Virus record (IMG/VR): IMGVR_UViG_2700989510_000001
Span: 1-13,999 of that record
DNA from: a virus
Lineage: Duplodnaviria > Heunggongvirae > Uroviricota > Caudoviricetes
Length of the DNA: 13,999 nt
Reading direction: 5' to 3' (one strand)
Shown here: positions 1 through 13,999 of the stretch, piece after piece
Numbering within the stretch: position 1 is the first letter of the stretch
How the letters are laid out: each line of letters opens with the position of its first letter
Notes under the pieces: model-generated
Database searches by the model: none
Told to the model about the DNA's origin: nothing
The model's input: only the letters and a program-made list of their open reading frames with translations
Translations under genes and position numbers: made by a program

Positions 1-156
1 TTACTCCTCAGGTTCGTAAGCTGTGAAGACAGCGACCTCCGTCTGGCCGGTTCGGATTCGTACCTCGCAGAGGTCTTTCCTCGTTACCAGTGCCGTCACA
101 ATGACGGTTAAACAGATGACGATCAGGGCGATTAACATCGCCTTTTGCTGCTTCAT
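1..156 (-). CDS. hok: Hok/Gef family type I toxin, 51 aa
   Basis: Minus-strand translation MKQQKAMLIALIVICLTVIVTALVTRKDLCEVRIRTGQTEVAVFTAYEPEE: one N-terminal TM helix plus the conserved Hok motif (LTRK.LCE..R.G..EVA.F.AYE). AGGAG sits about 9 nt upstream of the ATG at 156; TAA stop at 1-3. The six-frame ORF extends in frame to 213 (70 aa), but the 51-aa form matches Hok family length. Confidence 0.8.
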   Translation of the reverse strand: MKQQKAMLIALIVICLTVIVTALVTRKDLCEVRIRTGQTEVAVFTAYEPEE

Positions 157-402
157 AGCCTGCTTCTCCTTGCCTTTCGGCACGTAAGAGGCTAACCTAC
201 GTTTGTGAAGCATAGATTGGGCCTCAGATTAATGTTAAACGTCTTGCAGGACGCGTAATGTTAACTGGGGCTTTTCTCTATCTGCCTTTTGGTGTTCATG
301 CCTGAGACAGATAGCCTCAAGCACCCGCAGCAATTCTACTTAACTCTCGCTTTACCGCAAACCGTTTTTACCCGATATGGGAATTCCCATATCGTAATGA
401 AT

Positions 403-507
403 TCAGTTCCCTAGTCGATCCATCAAAAACACAACCAGGCAGTAAACGCCCACAACAGCAATAACAGCCAGCGCACCTTCCATTGCCAGTGAAATATCAT
501 CCGACAT
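403..507 (-). CDS. hypothetical small hydrophobic peptide, 34 aa
   Basis: Hand translation of the minus strand gives MSDDISLAMEGALAVIAVVGVYCLVVFLMDRLGN with TGA stop at 403-405. A strong SD (AAAGGAGGGAAT) immediately precedes the ATG at 505-507. Below the 60-aa cutoff of the ORF track. Single predicted TM segment. Confidence 0.35.
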   Translation of the reverse strand: MSDDISLAMEGALAVIAVVGVYCLVVFLMDRLGN

Positions 508-622
508 ATTCCCTCCTTTGGTGTGAATCCCGGCGAACGTTTTTACCCCCACCGACAAATAACATATACTAAAAAATCAATAGCTATAGCAACGCCTGTA
601 ATTGCAAAGGCTTCAGGCCAGA

Positions 623-1336
623 TCATTGGCGCACCTCCTGCGGCGGTTCTGGTAGCGGCATCCAGTCGGTTACATTGCGGCTCTGTGTTTCGAAAAATTC
701 ATCACCATTACGGACTACATCAAAAAACTCACCGTCTCGATATTGCGCATAAAGAACGAATGCGCCATCACATAAAATAATTACGTGCTGACCATCATCC
801 GGCATTCGCTCACTACAGCTTATCCAACCATCCGGAGTTACCGGATAGTTGGTTGACGTTTCCGAGATTTCCCGAAAATTATTGGTTGACGAACCCTTAT
901 TTTCCCGAAAGTTTCCAGCCTGAAGCATGGCGGCGCGGCAGGCGTTCCATATTTCGGCAGCAATATCGCGCTCGCTATCGGTTAATTTGTACGTTGAAAC
1001 ATAGCCAGAGAGCATTTCTACGTTTTCCGGAGTTGCTTCTTCAGGCACTACCGGTGCTGGCTCACGTATTACAGGCTCGCCCATGCGTGATTCTCCCTGC
1101 GCCTCTTTCACCATGTGGTCATTGATTTGCTCCAGTCGCCGAACGTGCTCATCAGCTTCAAGCGCTCGCCGTTTCCAGATGGACAGGTCTTCACGAGCGC
1201 CCTGATATGCGTCACCGTATTCGCCGTTAAATACTGGCGCTGGCGGGGCGATGCGTCCAAGCAACTTATTTACCTCTTTCGCCATCGCGTCATATTTATC
1301 TAAATAGCGATTAGCTTCTAAGCAGACTCGGTGCAT
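623..1336 (-). CDS. prophage protein with C-terminal DUF551-like domain
   Basis: 237-aa ORF. C-terminal region WISCSERMPDDGQHVIILCDGAFVLYAQY...VTDWMPLPEPP resembles the DUF551 signature as I recall it. No convincing SD at the 1336 ATG; an internal ATG (MAKEV, about 1288) is an alternative start. Confidence 0.7.
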   Translation of the reverse strand: MHRVCLEANRYLDKYDAMAKEVNKLLGRIAPPAPVFNGEYGDAYQGAREDLSIWKRRALEADEHVRRLEQINDHMVKEAQGESRMGEPVIREPAPVVPEEATPENVEMLSGYVSTYKLTDSERDIAAEIWNACRAAMLQAGNFRENKGSSTNNFREISETSTNYPVTPDGWISCSERMPDDGQHVIILCDGAFVLYAQYRDGEFFDVVRNGDEFFETQSRNVTDWMPLPEPPQEVRQ

Positions 1337-1536
1337 CTGATCTGAGTTAACTCGTTTAACTGGATCTGCTTCCAGCTATGCCAGTGCAATTTTGAATAAC
1401 TCGCCCTATACCCGTGCCATCCCTGAATTGGGGTAGCATTTCGCAATCGCTATTTTTAATTTGGCTTCTTCGATTAATTTCTCTTTGGTTAATTCAGTCA
1501 CTTTTCATTACCGCCCTTTCGGGCGGCCTCCTGACA

Positions 1537-1749
1537 TTAATCGTTGTGATAACTCATAGCTTCATTTGCAGCATCAACTGGATCAACATCCCACCAGCAA
1601 TAATTTGGGTCGACACCTTCAGGTGTCCACGGCTCTAATTCATTTTTTGCCGCATTCTCGTCGCCAGTAATTTTAAAAATCTGCTCTGAGAACTTTTTCA
1701 CCCACTCGTTATATTTTTCAGCGTTAATAACTTTCTGTGCGTTTGACAT
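1537..1749 (-). CDS. hypothetical prophage protein, 70 aa
   Basis: ORF with ATG at 1747-1749 preceded by GGAGGT at optimal spacing; TAA stop at 1537-1539. Acidic small protein, no recognisable family. Confidence 0.65.
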   Translation of the reverse strand: MSNAQKVINAEKYNEWVKKFSEQIFKITGDENAAKNELEPWTPEGVDPNYCWWDVDPVDAANEAMSYHND

Positions 1750-1797
1750 TGATATACCTCCGGTTAAGGATTAAATTTTTAACAGAGCTAAATTTAA

Positions 1798-2154
1798 TTA
1801 TTCAGTTCTGGATTTTGTCACCCTGCGTATCCGCGCTTTCACGTTACGCTCAATCTGAATTAGCTTTTCTATATTTCTCCGCCTTTCCCGTTCCTCCTGG
1901 CGCAAGATCCTTACATCATCTGCCAGTCTGGTTTCTCTTTTCGCCACAGAGAGCATCCAGTCAAATGGCTCCACAACTGCACCGCAGATTTTACAGCGGA
2001 CCTGACGCTCTTTTTCGTCAACCCGGACAGAGGCGTGATGGCAATATGGTCTTTCCGATGGCTCATAGAGAAAATTAACCTGATTACGTGGGTCATCCTC
2101 TTTTACCGGAAATAAAACGATATTGCTTAACTCATCTTCTGGTTTTATTTCCAT
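1798..2154 (-). CDS. hypothetical protein with putative zinc-ribbon (C-x-H-H ... C-K-I-C)
   Basis: 118-aa ORF. Strong SD (AAAGGAGAGGAGC) directly upstream of the ATG at 2152-2154. Start overlaps the end of the upstream gene by 23 nt. Cys/His cluster PYCHHASVRVDEKERQVRCKICG. Confidence 0.7.
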   Translation of the reverse strand: MEIKPEDELSNIVLFPVKEDDPRNQVNFLYEPSERPYCHHASVRVDEKERQVRCKICGAVVEPFDWMLSVAKRETRLADDVRILRQEERERRRNIEKLIQIERNVKARIRRVTKSRTE

Positions 2155-2851
2155 GCTCCTCTCCTTTGATGCGAATGCCAGCGGCGCGGATTGCAGCGAT
2201 GACTTCAGAAACTTTGTATGCCATTACCGTTTGGTAATCATCGTGAAAATCTGTTCGATGAAGCATGCTGCTACGTTCTGGGAGCGATATTTCCCGTGCT
2301 TCCAGTTCTGCAATGCGCTTCTCTGCGGATTCCAACGCCGCAACCAATTCGTCTACAGTTCCGGCAGCTTGCAGTGCGTAATCGGTAATAGCCATCTCAT
2401 GATCAATTTCAGTACCGTTCTCATTCGTTGAGGTGATAGCAAAATAATCAGAGTCGATTTCGTTATCAGCTAAGTGGCGTAGCGTATCGGCAACAAGCCG
2501 GCCGTTTTCGATTAGCAGCTTCCCTTCCGTAAGCGCAATCTCCTCGTTCTCCTGGTCGCGTGATTTGATGTATTGCTGGTTTCTTTCCCGTTCATCCAGT
2601 AGTGCCAGCGCAACATTTGGATTAAAGGCAGCAATAAATTCAGCGTTTGCGTAAGCCTGAGCATCTGTTTCAACCAGGCAGTTAACATGACATTCTGCAA
2701 TTACGCCACCGGGTTCTCCTTTCCATTTTTGACAAACAAAAACTCCTGTTATATTCCCATGCTGATTGCCCGATGTATGCCCTACGATGTAGCATCCTTT
2801 AGTTGCTTTCTCTGCTGCTTCACGAAGCGCCTCATAGTTAACCTCTCTCAT
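2132..2851 (-). CDS. Ead/Ea22-like prophage protein
   Basis: 239-aa ORF. N-terminus ...YEALREAAEKATKG... resembles lambdoid Ead/Ea22-like early proteins as I recall them. AGGAGGTGG SD upstream of the ATG at 2849-2851. ATGA start/stop overlap with the upstream gene. Confidence 0.75.
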   Translation of the reverse strand: MREVNYEALREAAEKATKGCYIVGHTSGNQHGNITGVFVCQKWKGEPGGVIAECHVNCLVETDAQAYANAEFIAAFNPNVALALLDERERNQQYIKSRDQENEEIALTEGKLLIENGRLVADTLRHLADNEIDSDYFAITSTNENGTEIDHEMAITDYALQAAGTVDELVAALESAEKRIAELEAREISLPERSSMLHRTDFHDDYQTVMAYKVSEVIAAIRAAGIRIKGEEHGNKTRR

Positions 2852-3144
2852 TGAGCCACCTCCTGATAAATCACCGTATGTCCCAGTTTCTCCGCCAGTG
2901 CCAGCTCTGCCTTAGCGCCCGCTGACCGCTGCCAGCCATTCAGCATGTAAATCGCATCCACGCAACGAATCATTGCCATGCAAATATCCATGTAGTGCGG
3001 CTGTGTCAGCCCGTCCGGAAGTACTGCCGGGTTTAAGACTGTATGCCCTTCCCGTTTCAGTTCCTCTTCCGCCTTGTGGAACGCCTCACGGTTGAAATTT
3101 TTATACCCGGTCATCGGACCGGCGATATAAACCCTCACCCTCAC
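2848..3144 (-). CDS. DUF4406-like (nucleoside 2-deoxyribosyltransferase-like fold) protein
   Basis: 98-aa ORF beginning (M)RVRVYIAGPMTGYKNFNREAF, the N-terminal motif I associate with DUF4406. GTG start at 3142-3144 with AGGAGGT 6 nt upstream; GTGA overlap with the upstream stop. Confidence 0.75.
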   Translation of the reverse strand: MRVRVYIAGPMTGYKNFNREAFHKAEEELKREGHTVLNPAVLPDGLTQPHYMDICMAMIRCVDAIYMLNGWQRSAGAKAELALAEKLGHTVIYQEVAQ

Positions 3145-3533
3145 TCCATCACCTCCTGAAAATTACCCCGATAGAACGCCAGCACACGCTGCATAACTTC
3201 GCTCTGGCGGCACTCACGACAAATTATGTTCTGCCGTCTGTTGTAACGACGTATTTCTCCGTCAGGTAACTTTCGAATCAGTGTCGGGTCAGCAGCCTTC
3301 TCCGGTGTCTTACGCCATACGCGATACGCCTGCTCTGATAGAAATACCCCGCAACCAGAGAGCCAGACATCACCACTGGCCGCAAGCGCACCAGATAAAC
3401 GACGAATAGCGGTCTTACTGACACCCGTTTTATCTGCCAGTTGTCGAAAAGTTTCTCGTCCGCTCAGGCGCACGAATTCCACAATGCGCGCCCTCACTTC
3501 TTCCCGCTCTTCTGGTGTAAATACTTTTGCCAT
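3141..3533 (-). CDS. hypothetical protein with probable HTH
   Basis: ORF track gives 3141..3548, but that first codon is TTG. The in-frame ATG at 3531-3533 (MAKVFTPEE...) has GGAGG 5 nt upstream and lies just after the upstream stop (3549-3551). Segment ETFRQLADKTGVSKTAIRRL looks like a helix-turn-helix. Confidence 0.7.
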   Translation of the reverse strand: MAKVFTPEEREEVRARIVEFVRLSGRETFRQLADKTGVSKTAIRRLSGALAASGDVWLSGCGVFLSEQAYRVWRKTPEKAADPTLIRKLPDGEIRRYNRRQNIICRECRQSEVMQRVLAFYRGNFQEVME

Positions 3534-3548
3534 AAGCGCCTCCGGCAA

Positions 3549-4274
3549 TCACTTTTCCGACACAATACGACCGGATGAATCGACAATCTGCCGAACAATA
3601 TCCCGGTGCTTGTTCAGCTCCCGCAGCGCGGCGCAGACACGCTCCCACTTCTGAACCTGACCTTTTGCCCGGCGCAGCTCGCGGTTAGCCACATGCAGCG
3701 ATGGTAAAATCAGACCATCCGGATGTTTTCTGGTGAACAACGGCTGTGACTGCACTGTGACCGCCACACTTTCAGTTTTTATTTCTTCCTGTGTTTCCGC
3801 TTCCCGGACTGGTAACGCAACACCTGTTGGCTGAGGAAAGGCTTTACCATCGGTTTCCACTACGGATGCAGCTTCCGGCTCTGCCGGTAAATCAGCACCC
3901 GGTATGCAGTAACGAAATTTACCGCCCTGATTCACGCGAATCAGACGCCCTTTGCTGATTGCCATGGCCAGCGATGAATTCGCCCGGCGGGAGGTAATCC
4001 CGAACATCAGTGCCAGCTCATCCGCCGTTTGTGGGCCATGTTGTTCAATCGCCTCAGTCAGCATTTTCGCTGTCACTTTCGGTACCGGTGACACCGGTTC
4101 ACTTTCACCAGCCTGAATCAGCCACCACATCGACCCCTTGTTATCCGCTTCACCGCGGCGCTTCAGTTTCCACAGTTCGTTGACCGCATCTTCACGGCTG
4201 ATTCCAAGGCGGGCCGCCACTACCTGTGAAGAGGCTCTTTTCAGTGCTTTCAGTGCGTCAAATACGGTTTCCAT
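3549..4274 (-). CDS. prophage protein with two winged-helix-like segments (DUF1627-like)
   Basis: 241-aa ORF. ATG at 4272-4274 with GGAGGAAA SD. HTH-like segments [25 protein letters not shown] and [29 protein letters not shown]. Confidence 0.75.
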
Positions 4275-4307
4275 TAAAATTTCCTCCGATAAAATCGTTT
4301 CTCAGAT

Positions 4308-4970
4308 TCAAATAAAACCAGCTGCCTTCCGGCGTTCGTATTCCTGTTTCAGCCGTTCAATTGGCGTTGGCCCTTGCGGGTGTTTCGCCCCTTCCAGTTG
4401 TCGTCGCACTGGCGGAACACTCATCCCGTTACCAACATGCTTTGCCCATTTCGTCAGTTGCCGTTCCGCAAGTCGTTTTAACTCACCCTGCGTCATCTGG
4501 CGCTCAATCCCTCTGGTACGCATTTCGAGGCAGATGTGGTACAGCACAGGCTGTGGCCACGGGTATTTATCACTCCCGTCGTATCGCCAGGATTCATTGC
4601 GCCAGCGCCGGTACTCTTCCATCACGGCATCCACCGTAAGACCAAATGGATTTGCCCCACTCTCCGAAATCAGCGCAACAAACTCAGCCAGGTCCGGGGG
4701 CCACGTTTCACCCGCCCGGCAGCGGTCCATGCACTGACGGCAGACCAGACGGATTTGCTGTTCAGTCATCGCACCAATCTGGGCAATCCAGAGCTTCGAA
4801 GGTGCGGCCCCGTTCTTCTGAGTCCAGCGGTTCGAATACACCTCCCCCATAAGCTCCCACAGCTTCCAGGCCGTTTCCGTTGCTGATAAATCCGTTTTCA
4901 CGTTCCCACTGTTCGCGTGCTGCCCGGATTTCCTGAACTGCCCGTGATGCCGTGCCACCTGGTGCTGCAT
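4308..4970 (-). CDS. replication protein P-like (putative DnaB helicase loader)
   Basis: C-terminal half (...YPWPQPVLYHICLEMR...ELKRLAERQL...) parallels lambda P (...YPWKSNAHYWLVTNLY...ELRRKAADEL...) from memory. Start uncertain: the ATG at 4970 (AGGGGG SD) overlaps the upstream gene by 209 nt; an in-frame ATG at 4850 (GGGAG SD) is the alternative. Confidence 0.7.
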   Translation of the reverse strand: MQHQVARHHGQFRKSGQHANSGNVKTDLSATETAWKLWELMGEVYSNRWTQKNGAAPSKLWIAQIGAMTEQQIRLVCRQCMDRCRAGETWPPDLAEFVALISESGANPFGLTVDAVMEEYRRWRNESWRYDGSDKYPWPQPVLYHICLEMRTRGIERQMTQGELKRLAERQLTKWAKHVGNGMSVPPVRRQLEGAKHPQGPTPIERLKQEYERRKAAGFI

Positions 4971-5793
4971 GGCTTACCCCCTTGCTGACTGGTTTTACCT
5001 GTGCCCTGACGTGCTGCACGTGGCGGGCAAATTTCTGCTCCCACTGAACCTGCGTGAAAACCTTCCCTTCCGCCATCCAGTAATCCCGGAATGCGGCAAG
5101 CTCAGCAGGTGTAAATTCCGGCTCAGGCAGAGCCATACCCCACACTGCTGCCCGTTGTCGAAAATCCGGCGACGGCTGCCAGACAGTAGTCATCGAAAAT
5201 TTCCCGATCGGTTCGCTCAGGCCGTCCAGGTATTCAGGTTCGGCTGTCTGCAACGGCGCACCATTCGACTCACTGGTCGGAATACTCTCGCGCGCGTTAT
5301 GTGTGGGGTTTAATTCTGTATCTGTATCTTTATCTGTCGTGACTTGTCGTGACAGATGCGTGACACGTCGTGACTCATCGTGACAATCAGCATTATGTTT
5401 CCGCAGCTTTTCCCGCTCCCGCTGCGCTCTCTTGCGCTCTGCCGGGGATTTTGCCGTTTGCGAAACGTTACCATTGTCCTCTTTCAGCACCTGACGTTTT
5501 TCCCATCCGGAAATAAGGTCACCATCCAGAACCCGCCCCTGCATTGCATGCAAAATTGAATCAATTACGTCTTCCGTCACATCAAGCGCACTTGCTAAAT
5601 CTTCCGTCGTGACATCAATGTGACCACGTAGTGACACGCCGTGACATGTCGTGACATTTCGTGACGCGCTCACCAGAAGATGGATATACACTGCCATCAC
5701 TGTTGCGATTGGCTGTCCTGATACCCTGGCAATCGTTCGCCACTTGGGGTCATTTGGCATGTCATGCCACAATCTGAGCCAGGCATTAGCCAT
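4762..5793 (-). CDS. replication initiation protein (O-like role) with DnaT-like C-terminal domain
   Basis: Segment GKFSMTTVWQPSPDFRQRAAVWGMALPEPEFTPAELAAFRDYWMAEGKVFTQVQWEQKFARHVQ closely parallels the C-terminal domain of E. coli primosomal protein DnaT as I recall it. The ORF track starts at a GTG (5799); the ATG at 5791-5793 has AGAGGTGA SD. The gene contains two iteron arrays. Confidence 0.8.
   Translation of the reverse strand: MANAWLRLWHDMPNDPKWRTIARVSGQPIATVMAVYIHLLVSASRNVTTCHGVSLRGHIDVTTEDLASALDVTEDVIDSILHAMQGRVLDGDLISGWEKRQVLKEDNGNVSQTAKSPAERKRAQREREKLRKHNADCHDESRRVTHLSRQVTTDKDTDTELNPTHNARESIPTSESNGAPLQTAEPEYLDGLSEPIGKFSMTTVWQPSPDFRQRAAVWGMALPEPEFTPAELAAFRDYWMAEGKVFTQVQWEQKFARHVQHVRAQVKPVSKGVSHAAPGGTASRAVQEIRAAREQWERENGFISNGNGLEAVGAYGGGVFEPLDSEERGRTFEALDCPDWCDD
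5312..5386. repeat. iteron array 1 (putative phage origin element): TATCTGT repeats followed by 5 x (T/G)CGTGAC at about 10-bp spacing
   Basis: TCGTGAC at 5337, 5347, (GCGTGAC 5358), 5368, 5378, i.e. one per helical turn, all in the same orientation, preceded by tctgtatctgtatctttatctg. Lies inside the initiator gene. Confidence 0.6.
5605..5667. repeat. iteron array 2 (putative phage origin element): 6 x GTGAC(A) at 10-11 bp spacing
   Basis: GTGAC at 5609, 5620, 5631, 5641, 5651, 5661 with 10-11 bp periodicity, same orientation as array 1, about 270 bp away and inside the same gene. Confidence 0.6.
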
Positions 5794-5861
5794 ACTCACC
5801 TCTTCTGATACCGAACTTTACCCACGAACTTCCGAAAGAAATCCGGTATAAATATTGTTGG

Positions 5862-6287
5862 TCAATGCACAACAACTGCATTACCAGGCTGACCACCACT
5901 GTTAGTCAGGGTGCCCCAGGCGATCGCTACAGCGATAAAATCATCCACATCTTTCACCAGCCGATCCCGTCGTTCGACGATCTCCCGGTAATATTCAGAA
6001 CTGTGACTGCGCATACGGGCCACCAGCAAAGGCGGCATCGCCTTTTCGATCGCCGGTAACAGCGCCTGAATTTTTTCAACCGCATCAGGCGTATCCTTCT
6101 CCACCCAGCGGAAAATTTTCTGGGTATTACGGGCCAGGGCTTCCGGATGGCTGTCGTCGTACAGTTCCGGGAACGTCATCCCAAGTTCGAAATAAGTCCG
6201 GGCTATTTCAGCTGCAGGCACTTTCTCACCATCAGGATATGCCCAGGCATTCATCGCCATGCGGATGTGTTCATGTTTGATTTTCAT
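5862..6287 (-). CDS. CII-position protein, YdaT-like
   Basis: 141-aa ORF starting MKIKHEHI, which I recall as the N-terminus of Rac YdaT-family proteins. ATG at 6285-6287 overlaps the upstream stop (ATGA). Sits between the cro-like gene and the replication initiator, the lambda cII position. Confidence 0.65.
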   Translation of the reverse strand: MKIKHEHIRMAMNAWAYPDGEKVPAAEIARTYFELGMTFPELYDDSHPEALARNTQKIFRWVEKDTPDAVEKIQALLPAIEKAMPPLLVARMRSHSSEYYREIVERRDRLVKDVDDFIAVAIAWGTLTNSGGQPGNAVVVH

Positions 6288-6511
6288 GAATCATTTTTCC
6301 TTTCGTTCGAGGTGTTATCCTTCTTTTTGTAAAGTTCTGGGTTCAACGATAATTTTCCCTTGGAGTATGCAACTGCTTCAGCAGCCCTCCCCTTGGGAAC
6401 TATTTCGCCGGGACGCTTACGCCACATGTATATAGCTTCTCGGGTTACCCCATAAAAATCAGCGACTCTTTGGACAGAACCAAAAAACTGGACAAGTTCA
6501 TCAACTCGCAT
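6284..6511 (-). CDS. Cro-like HTH regulator (YdaS-like)
   Basis: 75-aa ORF with HTH segment VQRVADFYGVTREAIYMWRKR. GGGGGTG SD upstream of the ATG at 6509-6511. Divergent from the cI-like repressor across a 98-bp operator region. Confidence 0.75.
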   Translation of the reverse strand: MRVDELVQFFGSVQRVADFYGVTREAIYMWRKRPGEIVPKGRAAEAVAYSKGKLSLNPELYKKKDNTSNERKNDS

Positions 6512-6609
6512 TTCACCCCCTTAAAACTAAGTATTTTTAGATTAAAGGGTAATTTTTTTTAGGTCAATACAATCTAAAATAATTTATATTCAATTCGCGG
6601 GAGAAAATA
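6512..6609. promoter_or_regulatory. divergent immunity promoter/operator region (pR-like leftward, pRM-like rightward)
   Basis: 98-bp AT-rich intergenic region between divergent cro-like and cI-like genes. Inverted repeat ATTTTTAGATT (6533-6543) / AATCTAAAAT (6571-6580). Leftward candidate promoter TTGACC-17-TAATCT (minus strand; GGTCAA at 6562-6567 on plus). Rightward candidate -10 TATATT at 6585-6590. SD GGGAG before the cI ATG. Confidence 0.5.
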
Positions 6610-7254
6610 ATGGAAAGCCTTGGCATTAGGCTTAAGAAACTCAGAAAAGACAAAGGTCTGACCCAAGTTGAACTTGGCAAGCTTTCTGGCGTAACTGGGG
6701 TAACAATAGGATACTGGGAGAAAGATCTAAACGAACCAGGTAGCAAAGCTCTTAGTAAATTAGCCCTAGCACTAGGCACTACTGAGTCCTATCTCCTGTA
6801 TGGAGTATCATCTCCTGAATCATCCCTTGTGCAGAAAAATCCAGGTACCCAAATCCCATACCTTTCTTGGGGAGAAGCGATTTCTTTCCTAATATTAAAA
6901 GGAGAGAAAACTATGGGAACTGTCGACAGGATCACCACATTCTTTGATGTCAAGGAGGGAGATTTTGCCGTTTCAATGCCTGATGATACTATGCACAATC
7001 CATCAGGGTCCCCAAGCATTCCAGTTGGAGCCACAGTGATCATGAGGCCTGGCGAAAAATATAAAAATGGTAGCATCGTCGCAGTAATAGTCCCAGATCC
7101 ACTCACAAACGAACCATCCATGACTATAAAAAAATTAGTTATTGATGGAAAGCTCGTGTACTTAGCCCCCCTTAACCCACGCTATCAATCATCCTTACTT
7201 ACACCGGAATGTAACATCGTTGCTGTAGCAAAAGGTGTTCAGTTCAGCCTCTAG
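6610..7254 (+). CDS. cI: cI-like prophage repressor: N-terminal HTH_XRE + C-terminal S24 (LexA-like) peptidase domain
   Basis: 214-aa ORF. HTH LTQVELGKLSGVTGVTIGYWE. C-terminal block TIKKLVIDGKLVYLAPLNPRYQ parallels lambda cI [21 protein letters not shown] (catalytic Lys region). Ser-Met in AVSMPDD is the candidate nucleophile. Confidence 0.9.
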   Translation: MESLGIRLKKLRKDKGLTQVELGKLSGVTGVTIGYWEKDLNEPGSKALSKLALALGTTESYLLYGVSSPESSLVQKNPGTQIPYLSWGEAISFLILKGEKTMGTVDRITTFFDVKEGDFAVSMPDDTMHNPSGSPSIPVGATVIMRPGEKYKNGSIVAVIVPDPLTNEPSMTIKKLVIDGKLVYLAPLNPRYQSSLLTPECNIVAVAKGVQFSL

Positions 7255-7278
7255 CTCCCGCTTTGCCCTGTAATCAGA

Positions 7279-7303
7279 GGTCGGCTTTGTCGGCCTTTTA
7301 TCT
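7279..7303 (+). terminator. possible intrinsic terminator after cI
   Basis: GGTCGGC-TTT-GTCGGCC can pair as RNA only with two G-U wobbles, followed by TTTTATCTT. Weak. Confidence 0.3.
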
Positions 7304-7323
7304 TAAAAATATTTACATTCAAC

Positions 7324-7352
7324 TTGACGGCAAAACTAAATATTCTTATATT
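7324..7352 (+). promoter_or_regulatory. candidate sigma70 promoter for the downstream moron
   Basis: TTGACG (7324-7329), 17-nt spacer, TATATT (7347-7352): near-consensus -35/-10 with optimal spacing, between the cI stop and the next rightward genes. Confidence 0.5.
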
Positions 7353-7528
7353 CATTGCAACCCACCCCGCTTCACAGAATGCAGGGCAATACTTCGAGTT
7401 ACCAGGCAGTGGTCAGGGGTTAAGTAGCCAGCCCGAGGCGTAAGAACATGACGGCAGGGTTCAACTTTAATAACTATGCAGCAGGTTTTTGTTCCGCTAC
7501 CCCGGCGTTAAGGGGAAATGAGGTCAGC

Positions 7529-7681
7529 ATGGATACTATCGATCTTGGCAACAACGAATCTCTGGTATGTGGCGTGTTTCCCAATCAGGACGGCACGTTT
7601 ACCGCGATGACGTATACCAGAAGCAAAACGTTTAAAACTGAAGCTGGCGCGCGTCGCTGGTTAGCCAGAAACACTGACTGA
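7529..7681 (+). CDS. small hypothetical protein (50 aa; 77 aa if started at 7448)
   Basis: ORF track gives 7448..7681. The ATG at 7529 has GAGG 5 nt upstream; the 7448 ATG has a poorer SD. Sequence ...GVFPNQDGTFTAMTYTRSKTFKTEAGARRWLARNTD. Stop TGA overlaps the downstream ORF. Confidence 0.5.
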   Translation: MDTIDLGNNESLVCGVFPNQDGTFTAMTYTRSKTFKTEAGARRWLARNTD

Positions 7682-7692
7682 TGAGGTTGACG

Positions 7693-8331
7693 ATGGAATT
7701 TAAAGATTTACCTCCTTCAATCCAGGAGATTGCAGCACACACACTTCGTCATCGTCTGAACGAACTTGAATTGGAATCGGTAACGAAAAAAGACACTGAT
7801 AATATGGCTCGTAATGTGCGCGATGCGTTTACCGGATTGTATTTCTGTGCGTCTATAAATAAACACGACTCAGAGAGTGTGGCAAATAAAATTGCAGAAA
7901 CGACAGCGCAAAACATCAATACGAAACCAACGGAAGAAGAAATTGATCAGTTTGCTCATGATGCTGGTTTAAAAAACAAGAAAGAAAAATCGCCATATGC
8001 GGGGAACATGTTTGTTTATGACAATCTCATCAGAATTCGTGGCGAAATTCCGGCGGAATACCTGGCAAGAGTCCATCAGGCATTGCTTAAAAATTTGGAA
8101 ACAGAATTATTTGATGGCAACACTAACGGTTTCTTCATGGTATCAGGCCTTGAGAAAGACTGGGATGCAGAAAAACGCTGGAATGTTGCTACATGGTTAT
8201 TCAGTAACAGAGCCGCTGCACTGGAAGCTTCGGCATGTATTTGCGGCCTGTTCTTAACAGACCACAAATATAATCTGGATGTGTACAGTTATATTTACGC
8301 TGAACACGGTCCACTCTGGATTGACTGGTAA
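7693..8331 (+). CDS. hypothetical protein, 212 aa, AT-rich moron gene in the rexAB-equivalent position
   Basis: ORF track starts at 7681 (ATG overlapping the upstream TGA); the ATG at 7693 has GAGG 6 nt upstream. AT-rich relative to flanks. No TM segment and no recognisable family. Co-oriented with and downstream of cI. Confidence 0.75.
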   Translation: MEFKDLPPSIQEIAAHTLRHRLNELELESVTKKDTDNMARNVRDAFTGLYFCASINKHDSESVANKIAETTAQNINTKPTEEEIDQFAHDAGLKNKKEKSPYAGNMFVYDNLIRIRGEIPAEYLARVHQALLKNLETELFDGNTNGFFMVSGLEKDWDAEKRWNVATWLFSNRAAALEASACICGLFLTDHKYNLDVYSYIYAEHGPLWIDW

Positions 8332-8541
8332 TTATAAGGAAACACCAGCAGGGCCGCGGCGACCAACAGAACGATTAAAATCAATAATGCCATTATAAAG
8401 GACATTATTTAATTTATCGTCGAATGCTGATTCTGTGAGCCTCAACTCTGAATGAGTTTTTAATAACCCTGATTGCCTGAGTTGATTTACCAGGCATTCA
8501 ATCTGTTTTTCAATAAGCGGATTTCTTTTTTTGTTTGGCAT
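8332..8541 (-). CDS. hypothetical small protein, 69 aa
   Basis: ORF track gives 8332..8553; the second ATG (8539-8541, MPNKKRNPLIEKQ...) is preceded by GGAGGATAAA. Its stop codon directly abuts the stop of the convergent 212-aa gene (TAATTA at 8329-8334). Confidence 0.5.
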   Translation of the reverse strand: MPNKKRNPLIEKQIECLVNQLRQSGLLKTHSELRLTESAFDDKLNNVLYNGIIDFNRSVGRRGPAGVSL

Positions 8542-8940
8542 TTTATCCTCCATTGAGGTTCTGGGTTAAAAATGGAGACCAACACGCTGTCACGTGTGGT
8601 CGTGCGCCGGACACGGATAAGAATCCGGTACTGACAGTTTACTGAAAGGATATTTCCCTGAAAAGTCAGGGCATAACGCGAAAGCGTACGGCGAAGCTCT
8701 TTCCCTTAGAAGGCTTGTCGTTAGATTTCTTCGAACGTGCGCTTCCGGTTGTGGCAATCCGCGAAATGGCGCGGCGGTAAGTATGGCGGGGTTATTCCTT
8801 CCCCATTGAGGACACCGGGTTGTCAGGTTGACCATACGCTTAAGTGACAACCCCGCTGCAACGCCCTCTGTTATCAATTTTCTGGTGACGTTTGGCGGTA
8901 TCAGTTTTACTCCGTGGCTGCTCTGCCGCCCTTTTTAAAG

Positions 8941-9088
8941 TGAATTTTGTGATGCGGTGAATGCGGCTCAGCGCACGCGGAACAGTTAAAACCAAAAACA
9001 GTGTTATGGGTGGATTCTCTGTATCCGGCGTTAATTGTTAACTGGTTAACGTCACCTGGAGGCACCAGGCACCGCATCACAAAATTCA
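8941..9088. repeat. perfect 19-bp inverted repeat pair flanking a 110-bp segment
   Basis: Left arm TGAATTTTGTGATGCGGTG (8941-8959); right arm CACCGCATCACAAAATTCA (9070-9088), its exact reverse complement. The match does not extend on either side. The right arm ends 17 nt before the ATG at 9106. Confidence 0.6.
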
Positions 9089-9105
9089 TTGTTGAGGACG
9101 CGATA

Positions 9106-9294
9106 ATGGAAACGTTATTACCAAACGTTAATACGTCTGAAGGTTGTTTTGATATTGGTGTTCTGCTCAGTAACCGGGAGTTTACTGAAGATGCCATTAA
9201 TATGAGGAAATATGAGCCTTATCTGCTCAATGATAATTCCATACTTTCCCGAATTGCTCTTCTTGAACTTGGTATTTTCGGAGAACGTCAATGA
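9106..9294 (+). CDS. small hypothetical protein, 62 aa (kil position of early-left operon)
   Basis: ATG at 9106 with GAGGA SD (ORF track frame begins at 9001). Stop overlaps the next ATG (ATGA at 9291-9294). First gene after the ORF-poor region and upstream of the exonuclease. Confidence 0.5.
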   Translation: METLLPNVNTSEGCFDIGVLLSNREFTEDAINMRKYEPYLLNDNSILSRIALLELGIFGERQ

Positions 9295-9461
9295 CTTCAG
9301 CATTTGCACTGATGATGACGGTTTTTCTTATAACGGGTGAATCACAGAATGTGATTACCGGAATTTATGCCAGTAAAGAATCCTGCCTCCAGGCAAGAGA
9401 CGAGCAAAAAATTTCTGGTGAATGCCTCCCGGTAAAAAAAAGTATCGCTGTACCTGAATAA
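9291..9461 (+). CDS. small hypothetical protein, 56 aa, hydrophobic N-terminus
   Basis: Hand translation MTSAFALMMTVFLITGESQNVITGIYASKESCLQARDEQKISGECLPVKKSIAVPE, TAA at 9459-9461. Translationally coupled (ATGA) to the upstream ORF. Below the ORF-track size cutoff. Confidence 0.5.
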   Translation: MTSAFALMMTVFLITGESQNVITGIYASKESCLQARDEQKISGECLPVKKSIAVPE

Positions 9462-9572
9462 CGAAACACCGGCTGGATAACCCTCCAGCCATATTAACAC
9501 CATACCAACGGATTAAAAATGCCAGCAATGGCAGGGATTTGTTCACCCTTAAATCTGTAATGAGGTTTATCA

Positions 9573-12032
9573 ATGAGCACTGATAAAGAAGAATTTGCGC
9601 TATATTGCGAAGCAAAAAATGACAAAGTCAGAAAACGTCTGGGAATTAAAGGTGGTTTTTACTGGACTACAGCAAAAAAATTATCTGTTGCCATCTCCCG
9701 CTGCATTACCGCAATGGATGACAACGATTATGATGAAGACGACTTTAAAAAACCCGTTCGCGTCCATTTACCCGTTGTGAATGACCTTCCACCTGAAGGC
9801 GTGTTTGATACCGAATTCTGCAACCGATACGAAAAAGGCGGGGAAGATGGCATTACAATGGTATTTATCGCGCCCTCTCCCTCCGTGCAGGAGAAACCAG
9901 CCAGTACTGACAATACCAACGTCAACGGCGAAGACATGACGGAGATTGAGGAGAATATGCTCCTGCCGGTTTCTGGTCAGGAGCTGCCCATTCGCTGGCT
10001 TGCGCAACACGGCAGCGAAAAACCAGTAACGCACGTTGCACGGGAAGAACTTCAGGCATTACATATAGCACGGGCGGAAGAACTGCCGGCTGTTACTGCC
10101 CTGGCCATTTCCCACAACACAAAGCTGCTCGACCCGCTGGAGATTCGCGACCTTCATAAACTGGCACGCGACACTGACAAAGTTTTCCCTAATCCCGGTA
10201 ATTCAGACCTGGGACTGATAACTGCTTTTTTCGAGGCATACCTGGACGCTGACTACACTGATCGGGGTCTGCTGACAAAAGAGTGGATGAAAGGAAATCG
10301 TGTTTCGCGTATCACCCGTACGGCTTCCGGTGCAAATGCCGGTGGCGGGAACAAAACCGATCGCAATCCGAATTTAGTACACACCTTCGATACGCTGGAT
10401 GTGGAGATTGCAGCAGCCACACTTCCGATGGATTTTAATATTTATGAAATTCCGGGCAGCGTTTATCGTCGCGCAAAAGAAATCGTCCTGAAAAGAGAAA
10501 GTCCGTTCAAAGAATGGTCCGCAGCACTTCGCGCAACCCCGGGTATTCTGGACTATTCCCGCGCCGCTATTTTTGCACTTATCCGGAGCGCTCACCCTGA
10601 GTTTTATCACTACCCGGGACGCCTTCAGGGGTATATCAACGCCTACTTAACGGAGACTGATCACGAGAACCCCAGCAAGGAAACTCTCACTGCTGCACGA
10701 CATACACCGGAAAAAGATATCCTGGAAGAAGTTAACCGCGAACTGGCTGCTAAGCAGGAAACAGAAGAAGAAAATGATGAAGAAAAACCGCAACCATCTT
10801 GCGCAATGGCAGATGAACAGGCAACGGCTGAAACAGTGGAACCGGATGCAACTGAACATCATCAGGACACGCAGCCGCTGGATGCTCAGTCACAGGTAAA
10901 TTCTGTTGATGCGAAATATCAGAAACTGCGGGCAGAACTCCATGAAGCCCGGAAAAACATTCCGCCCCAAAATCCTGTCGATGCAGACAAATTACTGGCT
11001 GCCTCTCGCGGAGAATTTGTTGAAGGGATTAGCGACCCGAATGATCCGAAATGGATTAAGGGGATCCAGACCCGCGATTCTGTGTACCAGAATCAGCCAG
11101 AAACGGAACAGAACGACCAGAAAGCGGAACAGAACAGCCCAAATACGCAACAAAACGAGCCAGAAACGAAACAACCTGAACCAGTAGTGCAACAGGAACC
11201 GGAAAAGATCTGCACCACCTGCGGTCAGACCGGCGGCGGCAACTGCCCTGATTGTGGCGCGGTGATGGGCGACGCAACATACCAGGAAACATTCGATGAC
11301 AAGAACCTGGTTGAAGTTCAGGAAGACGATTCGGAGAAAATGGAAGGCGCTGAACATCCACACAAGGAGAATGCTGGCAGCGCTCAGGACCACGCCAGCG
11401 ATAGTGAAACTGGCGAGACGGCAGATCCCTTAATTACGGTGAACGGTCATCACGTTATCACATCCACCAGCAGGACGTGTGACCATCTAATGATCGACCT
11501 TGAAACCATGGGAAAAAATCCTGATGCCCCGATTATCTCAATAGGTGCAATATTTTTCGATCCGCAAACCGGAGATATGGGACCGGAATTTAGTAAGACT
11601 ATCGATCTGGAAACTGCTGGCGGAGTCATTGATCGGGACACCATTAAATGGTGGCTTAAGCAATCACGCGAAGCGCAATCTGCCATTATGACCGATGAAA
11701 TCCCGTTAGATGATGCACTGTTACAATTGCGGGAATTTATCGACGAAAACTCCGGTGAATTCTTTGTTCAGGTCTGGGGAAATGGAGCCAACTTCGACAA
11801 CACGATTTTGCGCCGTTCATACGAACGGCAGGGGATCCCCTGCCCGTGGCGTTACTACAACGATCGCGATGTGCGCACAATCGTTGAGCTGGGGAAAGCC
11901 ATAGACTTCGATGCCAGAACGGCTATTCCATTCGAAGGTGAGCGCCATAATGCACTTGATGACGCCCGTTACCAGGCAAAATACGTTTCAGTTATCTGGC
12001 AAAAACTGATCCCGAGTCAGGCTGATTCTTAA
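9573..12032 (+). CDS. prophage exonuclease: RecE-like N-terminal region + zinc ribbon + C-terminal DnaQ-like DEDDh 3'-5' exonuclease domain
   Basis: 819-aa ORF with GAGGT SD. N-terminal blocks ([70 protein letters not shown]) match what I recall of the RecE (exodeoxyribonuclease VIII) N-terminal region. [16 protein letters not shown] is a zinc-ribbon-like motif. C-terminus carries DEDDh motifs: MIDLETMG (D-x-E), [12 protein letters not shown] (D), HNALDDARY (H-x3-D). Confidence 0.9.
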
Positions 12033-12042
12033 TGTTCAACTG

Positions 12043-12074
12043 TCGCCGGTTGTGACTGGTATTCTGCAACCGGC
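12043..12074 (+). other. 9-bp-stem hairpin between exonuclease and excisionase genes
   Basis: CGCCGGTTG (12043-12051) / CAACCGGCG (12066-12074), perfect 9-bp inverted repeat with 14-nt loop; no downstream U-tract. Confidence 0.3.
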
Positions 12075-12104
12075 GCTCGTCTGATGTAAGAGATAAAGAA
12101 AGCG

Positions 12105-12356
12105 ATGAGCGAAGTAATCATGATTGTCTCTCCCGGCAAATGGGTATCCGAAGAGCAGTTAATTGCGCTGAAAGGAATAAAAAAAGGTACGTTAAAAAAG
12201 GCCCGGGAAAAATCGTTTATGGAAGGAAGGGAATATAAGCATGTCGCTCATGACGGTATGCCATGGGATAACAGTCCATGCTTTTACAACCTGGAAGAAA
12301 TTGATCGCTGGATTGAGCGCCAGGCATCTGCAAGACCAAGACGTCATCTTGCTTGA
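12105..12356 (+). CDS. xis: excisionase-like protein
   Basis: 83-aa ORF immediately upstream of the integrase on the same strand. Contains a GREY motif reminiscent of lambda Xis (DGREY). Start could also be the ATG at 12120. Confidence 0.65.
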   Translation: MSEVIMIVSPGKWVSEEQLIALKGIKKGTLKKAREKSFMEGREYKHVAHDGMPWDNSPCFYNLEEIDRWIERQASARPRRHLA

Positions 12357-12390
12357 CTAAAAGCAACACGAACCAATGAGAGAAGCTGAA

Positions 12391-13671
12391 ATGAAATATC
12401 CGACAGGCGTGGAAAACCATGGAGGGAAATTACGTATCTGGTTTGTTTATAAAGGTGTAAGAGTCCGGGAAAATCTTGGGGTTCCTGACACAGCAAAAAA
12501 CAGGCGCATTGCAGGTGAGCTACGCGCCTCTGTTTGTTACGCAATAAAAACTGGCGCTTTCGACTATGCAAAACAGTTTCCCGCCTCACACAATCTGGAA
12601 AAATTTGGTGAGGCCCGACAAGATTTAACCATAAAAGAACTGGCTGAAAAATTTCTGGCACTGAAAGAAACTGAAGTCGCAAAAACGTCACTCAACACGT
12701 ACCGTGCCGTCATCAAAAATATTCTGAGCATAATCGGTGAAAAAAATCTTGCATCATCGATTAATAAAGAAAAATTGCTGGCGGTACGTAAAGAGTTACT
12801 GACTGGATACCAGATCCCCAAAAGTAACTATATTGTTACACAACCAGGGAGATCGGCTGTTACCGTAAATAATTACATGACAAATCTTTACGCCGTGTTC
12901 CAGTTTGGTGTTGATAACGGTTATCTGGCAGACAATCCATTTAAGGGGATCTCACCATTAAAGGGGTCGAGAACCATCCCGGATCCACTTTCGCGGGAGG
13001 AGTTTATCCGCCTTATTGACGCGTGCAGAAATCAGCAAGCCAAAAATTTATGGTGTGTTTCCGTTTATACTGGGATTCGCCCTGGTGAACTCTGTGCGCT
13101 TGGATGGGAAGATATAGATCTGAAAAATGGAACAATGATAATCAGAAGAAATCTGGCAAAAGACCGTTTTACAGTACCAAAAACACAGGCGGGAACCAAT
13201 CGTGTGATTCACCTTATTAAGCCCGCAATCGACGCTCTCCGGAGTCAGATGGCACTAACGAGACTGAGCAAAGAGCATATCATCGATGTTCACCTCAGAG
13301 AATTCGGCAGAACAGAGAAACAAAAATGTACCTTTGTTTTTCAACCTGAAGTGTCAGCGAAAGTAAAAAATTATGGTGACCATTTTACCGTTGACTCAAT
13401 AAGGCAGATGTGGGACGCAGCGGTAAAGCGTGCCGGAATCCGCCATCGCAAATCGTATCAGTCGAGACACACTTATGCCTGCTGGTCGTTAACAGCAGGA
13501 GCTAACCCGGCATTCATTGCAAACCAGATGGGCCATGCAGATGCGCAAATGGTGTTTCAGGTGTACGGGAAATGGATGTCAGAAAATAATAATGCGCAGG
13601 TAACGCTGTTAAATACACAGTTAAGCGAGTTTGCCCCAACCATGCCCCATAACGAAGCGATGAAAAGTTAA
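12391..13671 (+). CDS. int: tyrosine site-specific integrase (lambdoid/Rac-type)
   Basis: ORF track starts at 12376; the ATG at 12391 (MKYPTGVENHGGKLRIWF...) has a GAGAAG SD-like element and matches the N-terminus I recall for Rac-type integrases. C-terminal catalytic box ...RHTYACWSLTAGANPAFIANQMGHADAQMVFQVYGKW (R, H-x-x-R, H, Y). Confidence 0.9.
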   Translation: MKYPTGVENHGGKLRIWFVYKGVRVRENLGVPDTAKNRRIAGELRASVCYAIKTGAFDYAKQFPASHNLEKFGEARQDLTIKELAEKFLALKETEVAKTSLNTYRAVIKNILSIIGEKNLASSINKEKLLAVRKELLTGYQIPKSNYIVTQPGRSAVTVNNYMTNLYAVFQFGVDNGYLADNPFKGISPLKGSRTIPDPLSREEFIRLIDACRNQQAKNLWCVSVYTGIRPGELCALGWEDIDLKNGTMIIRRNLAKDRFTVPKTQAGTNRVIHLIKPAIDALRSQMALTRLSKEHIIDVHLREFGRTEKQKCTFVFQPEVSAKVKNYGDHFTVDSIRQMWDAAVKRAGIRHRKSYQSRHTYACWSLTAGANPAFIANQMGHADAQMVFQVYGKWMSENNNAQVTLLNTQLSEFAPTMPHNEAMKS

Positions 13672-13814
13672 TTTTTTATTTATCAATTAGTTAGATTGAA
13701 TGACTCTTGAAATCCATAAATTCAAGCGCAGTGCCCAGCCATCCCGATACTGCTGCTTTCACCAAATCCTTAGTGCTTCTTTCATGTTTTTCTATTGTCA
13801 TAATGGTTATCTCT

Positions 13815-13882
13815 AAAAAAGAGGTAAGAAGCGTACTACTTACTCGCCGTTATTGGTATTATTCAGAAAAAGGTAAGCGTAC
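13815..13882. repeat. direct repeats AAAAAGGTAAG(AA)GCGTAC downstream of int; candidate integrase arm-type sites in the att region
   Basis: aaaaaagaGGTAAGaaGCGTAC (13815-13836) and agaaaaaGGTAAGCGTAC (13865-13882), about 50 bp apart, then a short palindrome GTCTGGTCAGAATCTGAC (13893-13910). Function inferred from position only. Confidence 0.35.
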
Positions 13883-13999
13883 AGCCTGAACCGTCTGGTC
13901 AGAATCTGACGAATTAGACAAAGTGGTGTCCACCAAATAAGTAGTGGGAACCAAAGTGTCAGATATGCAGAAAAATGTGACTCCCGGCAGGCGAAAAGG

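Follow-up and report, generated by a model that had tools for sequence, protein, structure and literature searches.

The window analyzed in this study is a stretch of 13,999 nucleotides (nt) that corresponds to positions 1-13,999 of the IMG/VR record IMGVR_UViG_2700989510_000001 (Caudoviricetes) and covers that part of a Qin/Rac-like lambdoid prophage in which the immunity and early genes reside. We here focus on one gene in this window, which encodes a protein of 819 amino acid residues comprising a RecE-family N-terminal module and a DEDDh-type 3'-5' exonuclease domain (Table 1). The open reading frame (ORF) starts with ATG, and the sequence GAGG lies 8 nt upstream of the start codon. A first-pass annotation of the same DNA described the product as a chimera of RecE and a DnaQ-like nuclease, encoded ahead of the excisionase and integrase genes (xis and int) with no annealase gene, regarded it as unlikely to be part of a canonical Red/RecET module, and suggested processing or anti-defence as examples of a different role. 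The chimeric gene is real but not peculiar to the window. Copies with 99.6% identity reside in Escherichia coli chromosomes, where they are annotated as 'exonuclease' or '3'-5' exonuclease', and the architecture turned out to be a common and conserved one (see below).

The N-terminal two thirds of the protein were confirmed to be RecE-like. Residues 1-622 aligned to positions 1-603 of the 877-position NCBIfam model for the RecE equivalog (NF007259) with a score of 1001.2 bits, which is under the curated cut-off of 1269, and the protein is thus not a RecE equivalog as that model defines it. In the BLASTP comparison with RecE of E. coli K-12, residues 58 to ~622 matched RecE residues 50 to ~592 with 58% identity, and PF06630 (Exonuc_VIII) of Pfam matched residues 57-189 (positions 9741-10139; E = 5.2e-34). 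The similarity to RecE ends at the motif '...SDETGE(T/V)ADP', directly ahead of the nuclease domain of RecE. No Pfam match to a PDDEXK nuclease was found in the 819-residue protein, nor any similarity to RecE past RecE residue ~592, and RecE residues 601-866 used as a tblastn query gave no match in the related loci encoding DEDDh-type domains (see below). At the DNA level, the homology to recE of the Rac prophage is restricted to positions 9911-10364 and 10760-11434, and the latter, covering the linker region, is 81% identical.

The C-terminal portion is a DEDDh exonuclease and not a PD-(D/E)xK nuclease, as had been proposed. The domain search on this portion yielded a DEDD family, PF16473 (Rv2179c-like 3'-5' exoribonuclease domain), which matched residues 638-809 with an E-value of 2e-67 and a score of 226.7 bits against a cut-off of 27, the profile being covered at positions 2-177 of 177. 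DexA of phage T4 was the sole match by sequence in the PDB. The same protein was the best match (E = 5e-8) when the structure predicted by AlphaFold2 was subjected to Foldseek, and RNase T, a DnaQ domain, and Orn/REXO2 ranked next; the probability of 1.0 to DexA, RNase T, the DnaQ domain, and Orn places the domain in the DnaQ/RNase T-like fold. The catalytic set of D642 and E644 (both in MIDLETMG), D742, H792, and D797 aligned with D7, E9, D119, H186, and D191 of T4 DexA, respectively. These columns, including the H-x4-D motif, are invariant or nearly so across the relatives and T4 DexA. On reading the sequence, we saw no convincing Shine-Dalgarno sequence ahead of M640, by which the DEDDh domain might be translated separately.

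The domain matches raise the question of whether the substrate is RNA. The protein could be a 3'-5' exoribonuclease similar to Rv2179c or RNase T that trims or turns over phage or host transcripts, small RNAs (sRNAs) such as DicF, or nucleotide second messengers, given the title of the best-matching Pfam family, the presence of RNase T, oligoribonuclease, and REXO2 among the structural neighbours, the name '3'-5' exoribonuclease' given to many of the copies in NCBI, and the DicF gene in the same operon. However, the nearest relative with both a structure and a known activity is a DNase, DexA, and the ribonuclease name comes from the title of the Pfam family, not from a test. Furthermore, it is a DNA nuclease whose place the domain has taken, precisely at the domain boundary of RecE and with the RecE-type module kept, and the gene occupies the slot of a Rec module or one proximal to int. 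We thus regard an RNA-directed function as improbable.

The two modules also stand apart in the predicted structure. In the AlphaFold2 models, residues ~5-400 were confidently folded with predicted local distance difference test (pLDDT) values mostly >90 (the mean was 89.1 for the model of residues 1-405), and the DEDDh domain was well predicted with high pLDDT over residues 638-812. Residues 402-632 between them were largely disordered, with pLDDT <50 over 402-442, 496-543, and 568-632. No fold match was found for the RecE-type N-terminal module, which has no solved structural relative. The first-pass annotation placed a zinc-ribbon-like motif and an acidic linker between the RecE-like and nuclease parts. 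Both features are present, but they do not separate two parts of different origin: the Cys4 motif (pLDDT ~65-73) and the acidic segment occur in K-12 RecE as well, so that they are features inherited from the RecE linker and not products of the fusion. As the Cys4 motif was found in only seven of the 79 family representatives described below, it is a variable feature of the linker.

The claim that no annealase gene precedes xis and int held in every search of the window. None of the ORFs in the window matched an annealase family in Pfam or PHROGs, and none was matched by tblastn with RecT, Bet, Erf, or Sak4 as seeds. To place the window among its relatives, we assembled 87 loci coding for proteins related to the N-terminal region of RecE, 80 from viral contigs and 7 from genome contigs by means of very specific peptide patterns; 68 of them encode a DEDDh-type domain bearing the MIDLETM-type motif. 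Eight seed proteins were used in tblastn at E<=0.01, namely RecT (two types), lambda Bet, P22 Erf, HK620 Sak4, lambda Gam, P22 Abc2, and HK620 SSB-2 (a single-stranded DNA-binding protein, SSB), and the positive controls all scored. No seed matched anywhere in the window, in the 733 kb of the 68 DEDDh-type loci, or in phage Tritos, the genome of which was searched completely, whereas recT is immediately downstream in all of the eight loci in which a RecE-type nuclease follows the N-terminal region. The lack of an annealase across the DEDDh-type loci implies a trait of this architecture and not a deletion peculiar to the window, and the census (0/68 against 8/8) strengthens the view that the gene is not part of a canonical Red/RecET module. 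Within the 14 kb covered, this lambdoid prophage of the Qin/Tritos type has no recombination-type gene besides the exonuclease gene.

The fusion gene is widespread. Near-identical DNA of the gene was found in thousands of E. coli genomes; the stretch comprising the DEDDh domain and xis matched 4107 of the 5426 complete E. coli genomes and was covered by at least 80% in 2531 genomes, in which the two genes are annotated as 'exonuclease' and 'excisionase'. The public databases hold the protein thousands of times under the names of 'exonuclease', '3'-5' exoribonuclease', and 'exodeoxyribonuclease VIII'. We searched 1.84 billion representative proteins with residues 1-618 as the query (E<=1e-3) and obtained 268 clusters, 79 of which had representatives of at least 450 residues. 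By BLASTP, 20 of the 79 representatives possess a RecE-type nuclease, 14 a DEDDh domain, and 1 a RecT match, and the remaining 44 matched neither nuclease. Pfam added a PDDEXK domain to 2 of these 44 and no further domain to the other 42. The DEDDh fusion is spread over 14 distinct clusters at 50% identity. Altogether, three recurrent forms of the RecE N-terminal region can be distinguished, in which it is joined to the RecE nuclease, joined to the DEDDh domain, or alone. All of the forms part ways within ~5 residues after '...ETGE.A', indicating a shared recombination breakpoint.

Two loci illustrate forms other than the fusion. In one (L020, 7001-10773), a 676-residue ORF with PF06630 only is located directly upstream of gam, bet, and exo; in the other (L085, 7001-11207), an 835-residue N-region protein is followed by a separate 223-residue PDDEXK (DUF3799) ORF and a 350-residue RecT. 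The partners of the N-terminal module are thus of at least three different kinds. The DEDDh domain occurs by itself as well, and stand-alone versions of 180-190 residues are common in enterobacterial prophages. The stand-alone DEDDh genes of Escherichia phage Eeyore (190 residues; L006, 5998-6570) and Citrobacter phage phiNP (157 residues; L007, 5998-6471) sit just before xis/int in these unrelated temperate phages. The int-proximal position is conserved even without the RecE-type module.

Among the 56 intact fusion ORFs (~804-820 residues; 51 unique), the ratio of nonsynonymous to synonymous substitution rates (dN/dS) had medians of 0.13 (residues 5-400), 0.35 (linker), and 0.10 (DEDDh domain). 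The low ratios in the N-terminal module and the DEDDh domain indicate that both are under purifying selection. These data bear on the possibility that the gene is an inert relic, i.e., an accidental and decaying fusion that was left when illegitimate recombination removed the nuclease domain and recT from a RecET module. The window does lie in a prophage, K-12 Qin carries pseudogenes in the same slot, and hybrid or truncated forms exist (P0072, L009, and L044). Nevertheless, the 56 intact full-length ORFs with low dN/dS in both modules, the integrity of all five catalytic residues, and the occurrence of the fusion in 14 distinct clusters, thousands of E. coli genomes, and phage Tritos contradict a relic, which is strongly disfavoured and hardly credible to us.

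The genes surrounding the exonuclease gene are summarized in Table 1. The CI-like repressor gene is divergent from a P22_Cro-family gene, beyond which a YdaT-like gene and replication genes are found. On the other side, the early-left (dicB-type) operon, which also includes a DUF1391 gene, contains xis and int as well. In this repressor-controlled operon, no further gene intervenes between the exonuclease gene and xis-int. We detected no promoter-like site within positions 9461-9573, directly upstream of the gene. Judging from the lambdoid architecture, the CI-like repressor should hold the operon off in the lysogen, and the exonuclease gene most likely shares the transcript of the operon and is silenced along with it.

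Table 1. Features of the window that bear on the exonuclease gene and its surroundings
Feature	Position	Strand	Basis
Chi site GCTGGTGG	1591-1598	-	
Chi site GCTGGTGG	6020-6027	-	
P22_Cro-family gene, divergent from the repressor gene	6284-6511	-	Pfam
CI-like repressor gene (helix-turn-helix and S24 peptidase)	6610-7254	+	Pfam
Early-left (dicB-type) operon, part upstream of the exonuclease gene	7324-9461	+	Same gene order in phage Tritos
Promoter-like site of the early-left operon	7324-7352	+	
Gene for a 216-residue protein	7681-8331	+	phrog_2151; no Pfam match
DicF sRNA	8880-8931	+	Rfam RF00039, 75 bits
dicB	9106-9294	+	
ydfD-like gene, followed by the exonuclease gene	9291-9461	+	
Exonuclease gene (819 residues): RecE-family N-terminal module and DEDDh 3'-5' exonuclease domain	9573-12032	+	ORF, translation, domain matches
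Folded N-terminal module (predicted), residues ~5-400, homologous to the RecE N-terminal region	9585-10772	+	Contains the PF06630 match
Acidic Q/E/P-rich linker, residues 401-637, mostly disordered (predicted), common to RecE	10773-11483	+	pLDDT, composition
CxxC-x7-CxxC zinc-ribbon-like motif, residues 547-561	11211-11255	+	Sequence; conserved in K-12 RecE
Chi site GCTGGTGG within the ~50-nt junction that links the last position of RecE homology (11434) to the DEDDh domain	11464-11471	-	
DEDDh (DnaQ-fold) exonuclease domain, residues 638-819	11484-12029	+	PF16473, T4 DexA matches, catalytic residues
Excisionase gene xis, directly downstream	12105-12356	+	PF06806, E = 1.6e-31
Tyrosine integrase gene int	12376-13671	+	PF12167 and PF00589

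The control of the gene is relevant to a role in defence or superinfection exclusion, in which the protein would act like EcD ('HREX') and cut the DNA of T-even phages containing 5-hydroxymethylcytosine (5hmC) while sparing host DNA. The C-terminal domain belongs to the DexA family, a DexA homologue of E. coli, EcD, cleaves 5hmC DNA and protects the cell against T4, and DexA homologues are abundant in Escherichia (PMC12153337), to which the stand-alone versions common in enterobacterial prophages may be added. On the other hand, the exonuclease gene resides in a repressed operon with no promoter-like site of its own, and PADLOC detected none of the known defence families, so that the data lean against a defence role. 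The DexA residues that reportedly recognise 5hmC, W152 and D169, align to Y762 and A776 of the window protein, which is a weak negative as the alignment around D169 is uncertain, and the Asp of the DexA tetramer, D90, which is Ala in EcD, is kept here as D714. We also considered whether the C-terminal domain is EcD itself and rejected this identity: the cloning primers of EcD encode 'MIDTET...' and '...TIPETY' instead of 'MIDLETMG...IPSQADS' found here, and the signature residues above differ. Altogether, we consider a defence nuclease unlikely, and the data lean towards DNA-end processing.

The processing of DNA could alternatively serve nutrition, the protein being a nucleotide scavenger that degrades fragments of the host chromosomal DNA for phage replication after induction. 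Temperate lambdoid phages are not known to degrade the host chromosome; in addition, a plain scavenger has no evident need of a conserved 400-residue RecE-type module, and no endonuclease partner is visible in the window. Scavenging does fit with the early expression expected from a PL-type operon and with the homology to T4 DexA, whose two classical roles include it (PMC12153337), but we judge this explanation to be very improbable.

Chi sites are enriched in the window. Three Chi sites (GCTGGTGG) occur in 14 kb, all on the minus strand of the window, which is the top strand in the conventional orientation of lambdoid maps; 0.28 sites are expected, and none of 200 shuffles reached three. One of the three lies in the junction between the RecE homology and the DEDDh domain. 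This Chi site is found upstream of the DEDDh domain in 51 of the 51 unique fusion genes and in phage Tritos, the genome of which bears nine top-strand and two bottom-strand Chi sites.

We propose, at about an even chance of being correct, that the gene encodes an annealase-independent exonuclease acting on DNA 3' ends in lytic growth of a phage that relies on RecBCD, Chi, and RecA of the host. After induction, the protein would degrade DNA from 3' ends as T4 DexA does, with no single-strand annealing of the Red/RecET type involved in its action, and would serve phage replication or recombination dependent on host RecBCD-Chi and RecA. The 3' tails may be trimmed so that the ends become substrates on which RecBCD can load. 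The RecE-type N-terminal module would provide the same putative targeting or assembly function as in RecE. We favour a DNA-end exonuclease because the gene is positioned in a repressed operon, the nuclease has been replaced at an exact boundary with the RecE module kept under selection, neither an annealase nor a RecBCD inhibitor is encoded, and Chi sites are enriched.

Several points weigh against this proposal. The polarity and the substrate (DNA or RNA) are deduced from relatives at ~27% identity, the Pfam family carries an exoribonuclease name, and the Chi enrichment was counted over 14 kb of the prophage. According to PMC12315714, DnaQ-type 3'-5' exonucleases usually inhibit homologous recombination, so that a role promoting recombination is not obvious, and isolated DnaQ-type genes near int were not counted as members of Rec modules. 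Even for RecE, no function is assigned to the N-terminal module in PMC11611040, the module gave no fold match, and our literature search for functional work on the RecE-N::DEDDh fusion found none.

The proposal of a 3'-end exonuclease can be extended to the RecE N-terminal region in general. This region may be an autonomous adaptor of a new fold that brings an attached or neighbouring nuclease to a common target, and the DEDDh form may represent an annealase-free strategy in which a phage 3'-5' exonuclease prepares ends for RecBCD-Chi-RecA. We offer this combined idea tentatively and consider it rather doubtful. If it is true, the partners of the adaptor would be a PD-(D/E)xK nuclease with RecT, the DEDDh domain alone, or none beside Gam-Bet-Exo, and the target would be, for example, DNA ends or a host protein that takes part in recombination or replication.

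The gene itself is not new, as it is common and annotated and its module type was described in 2025 (PMC12315714). What is new here is that the RecE N-terminal region (residues ~5-400) is predicted to be folded, has no solved structural relative, is under purifying selection, and recurs in three forms. It has the behaviour of a portable module, predicted to be folded and maintained by selection, which pairs with nucleases of opposite predicted polarity or stands alone. The first ~600 residues of RecE have been labelled 'unknown function' for decades. The fusion gene represents a natural experiment, in which the same module is maintained under selection with a nuclease of opposite predicted polarity and no annealase, and the function of the module thereby becomes experimentally approachable. 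Furthermore, the protein is a candidate for the sole phage-encoded DNA-end activity in the Gam-less, Chi-rich lambdoid phages that have been proposed to rely on RecBCD. The name 'exodeoxyribonuclease VIII', which the RecE-N::DEDDh protein bears in thousands of database entries, is misleading.

Some additional observations concern the Qin-like nature of the window and the neighbours of the exonuclease gene. The int gene shares 95% DNA identity with K-12 intQ over positions 12512-12963, and near-identical copies of the region in the chromosomes of enterohaemorrhagic E. coli (EHEC) adjoin rspB, the integration site of Qin. At the opposite end of the window, a hok/sok-type toxin-antitoxin locus is located at positions 1-326 on the minus strand, where the sok antitoxin RNA (151-326; Rfam RF01794, 118 bits) lies beside a 70-residue ORF (1-213), and positions 1-170 share 99.4% identity with the region around hokD in K-12 Qin. 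The slot of the exonuclease gene in K-12 Qin is occupied by the ydfE pseudogene (L004, 20079-20999). We examined ydfE as a homologue of the exonuclease gene and rejected it, the two being unrelated sequences in the same slot. Some E. coli proteins (P0072, P0059, and P0087) have a YdfE-like N-terminus joined to the C-terminal half of the DEDDh domain. They are probably deletion hybrids, which would imply the existence of prophages with both genes in tandem. In the operon, the first ~75 residues of the 216-residue protein resemble the N-terminal ends of five different PHROGs, all without an assigned function, suggesting a shared N-terminal module on variable C-termini. Between this gene and DicF, there is an antisense ORF of 73 residues (8332-8553, minus strand; phrog_4274 of unknown function, E = 1e-51), the homologue of which is annotated as 'hypothetical protein' at the same place in an EHEC record (L001, 10761-10970).

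Among the known systems, RecE of Rac (exonuclease VIII) shares the N-terminal region with the window protein (58-63% identity over ~560-620 residues), to which PF06630, the acidic linker, and the Cys4 motif belong, and its gene occupies the same slot in the lambdoid early-left operon upstream of xis-int. In contrast to RecE, the PD-(D/E)xK 5'-3' nuclease (RecE residues ~600-866) is replaced by the DEDDh domain of opposite predicted polarity, and recT is missing. The RecE N-terminal region was described as having an unknown function, although linear-linear recombineering is made possible by RecE in its full-length version (PMC11611040).

T4 DexA (PDB 8KEL/8KEN), a 3'-5' DNase (PMC12153337), shares both the DEDDh fold and the catalytic residues with the C-terminal domain. 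The two differ in that the identity is ~27%, the insertions of DexA are missing and the equivalents of W152/D169 differ in the window protein, and DexA is a stand-alone protein of 227 residues from a lytic phage, whereas the domain considered here is the C-terminus of an 819-residue protein of a temperate phage. EcD/HREX (PMC12153337, NAR 2025) likewise belongs to the DexA-like DEDDh family and is from E. coli, but its sequence is different, it appears to be stand-alone, and its 5hmC and dimer-state signatures are unmatched by the window protein. The stand-alone proteins of Eeyore and phiNP are closer, with domains 55-58% identical to that of the window protein and encoded by the last or second-to-last gene before int, but comprise 157-190 residues without a RecE-type N-terminal module. 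Rv2179c of Mycobacterium tuberculosis is the namesake of PF16473 and thus a member of the same Pfam family; it was reportedly described in 2014 as a cellular exoribonuclease and was not among the PDB sequence matches at E<=0.01.

A counterpart of the gene is found in phage Tritos. The C-terminal domain of the Tritos protein is 100% identical to that of the window protein, and the gene order of dicF, dicB, ydfD, exo, xis, and int is the same, but the N-terminal ~245 residues are unlike those of the window protein. In PMC12315714 (Genome Res 2025), Tritos is the prototype of a Chi-rich lambdoid Rec module that has a nuclease but no annealase (single-strand annealing protein, SAP), anti-RecBCD, or SSB gene, and lambdoid phages without Rec genes are proposed to use RecBCD-Chi. 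According to the same paper, lambdoid Rec modules may contain DnaQ-like 3'-5' nucleases, DnaQ-type genes occur sporadically 'very near int', and some proteins related to RecE are devoid of a nuclease domain; the main text does not describe the Tritos nuclease as a RecE-N::DnaQ fusion. Within its 14 kb, the window has the same composition as the Tritos-type module, i.e., a nuclease gene, no annealase, anti-RecBCD, or SSB gene, and three Chi sites on a single strand.

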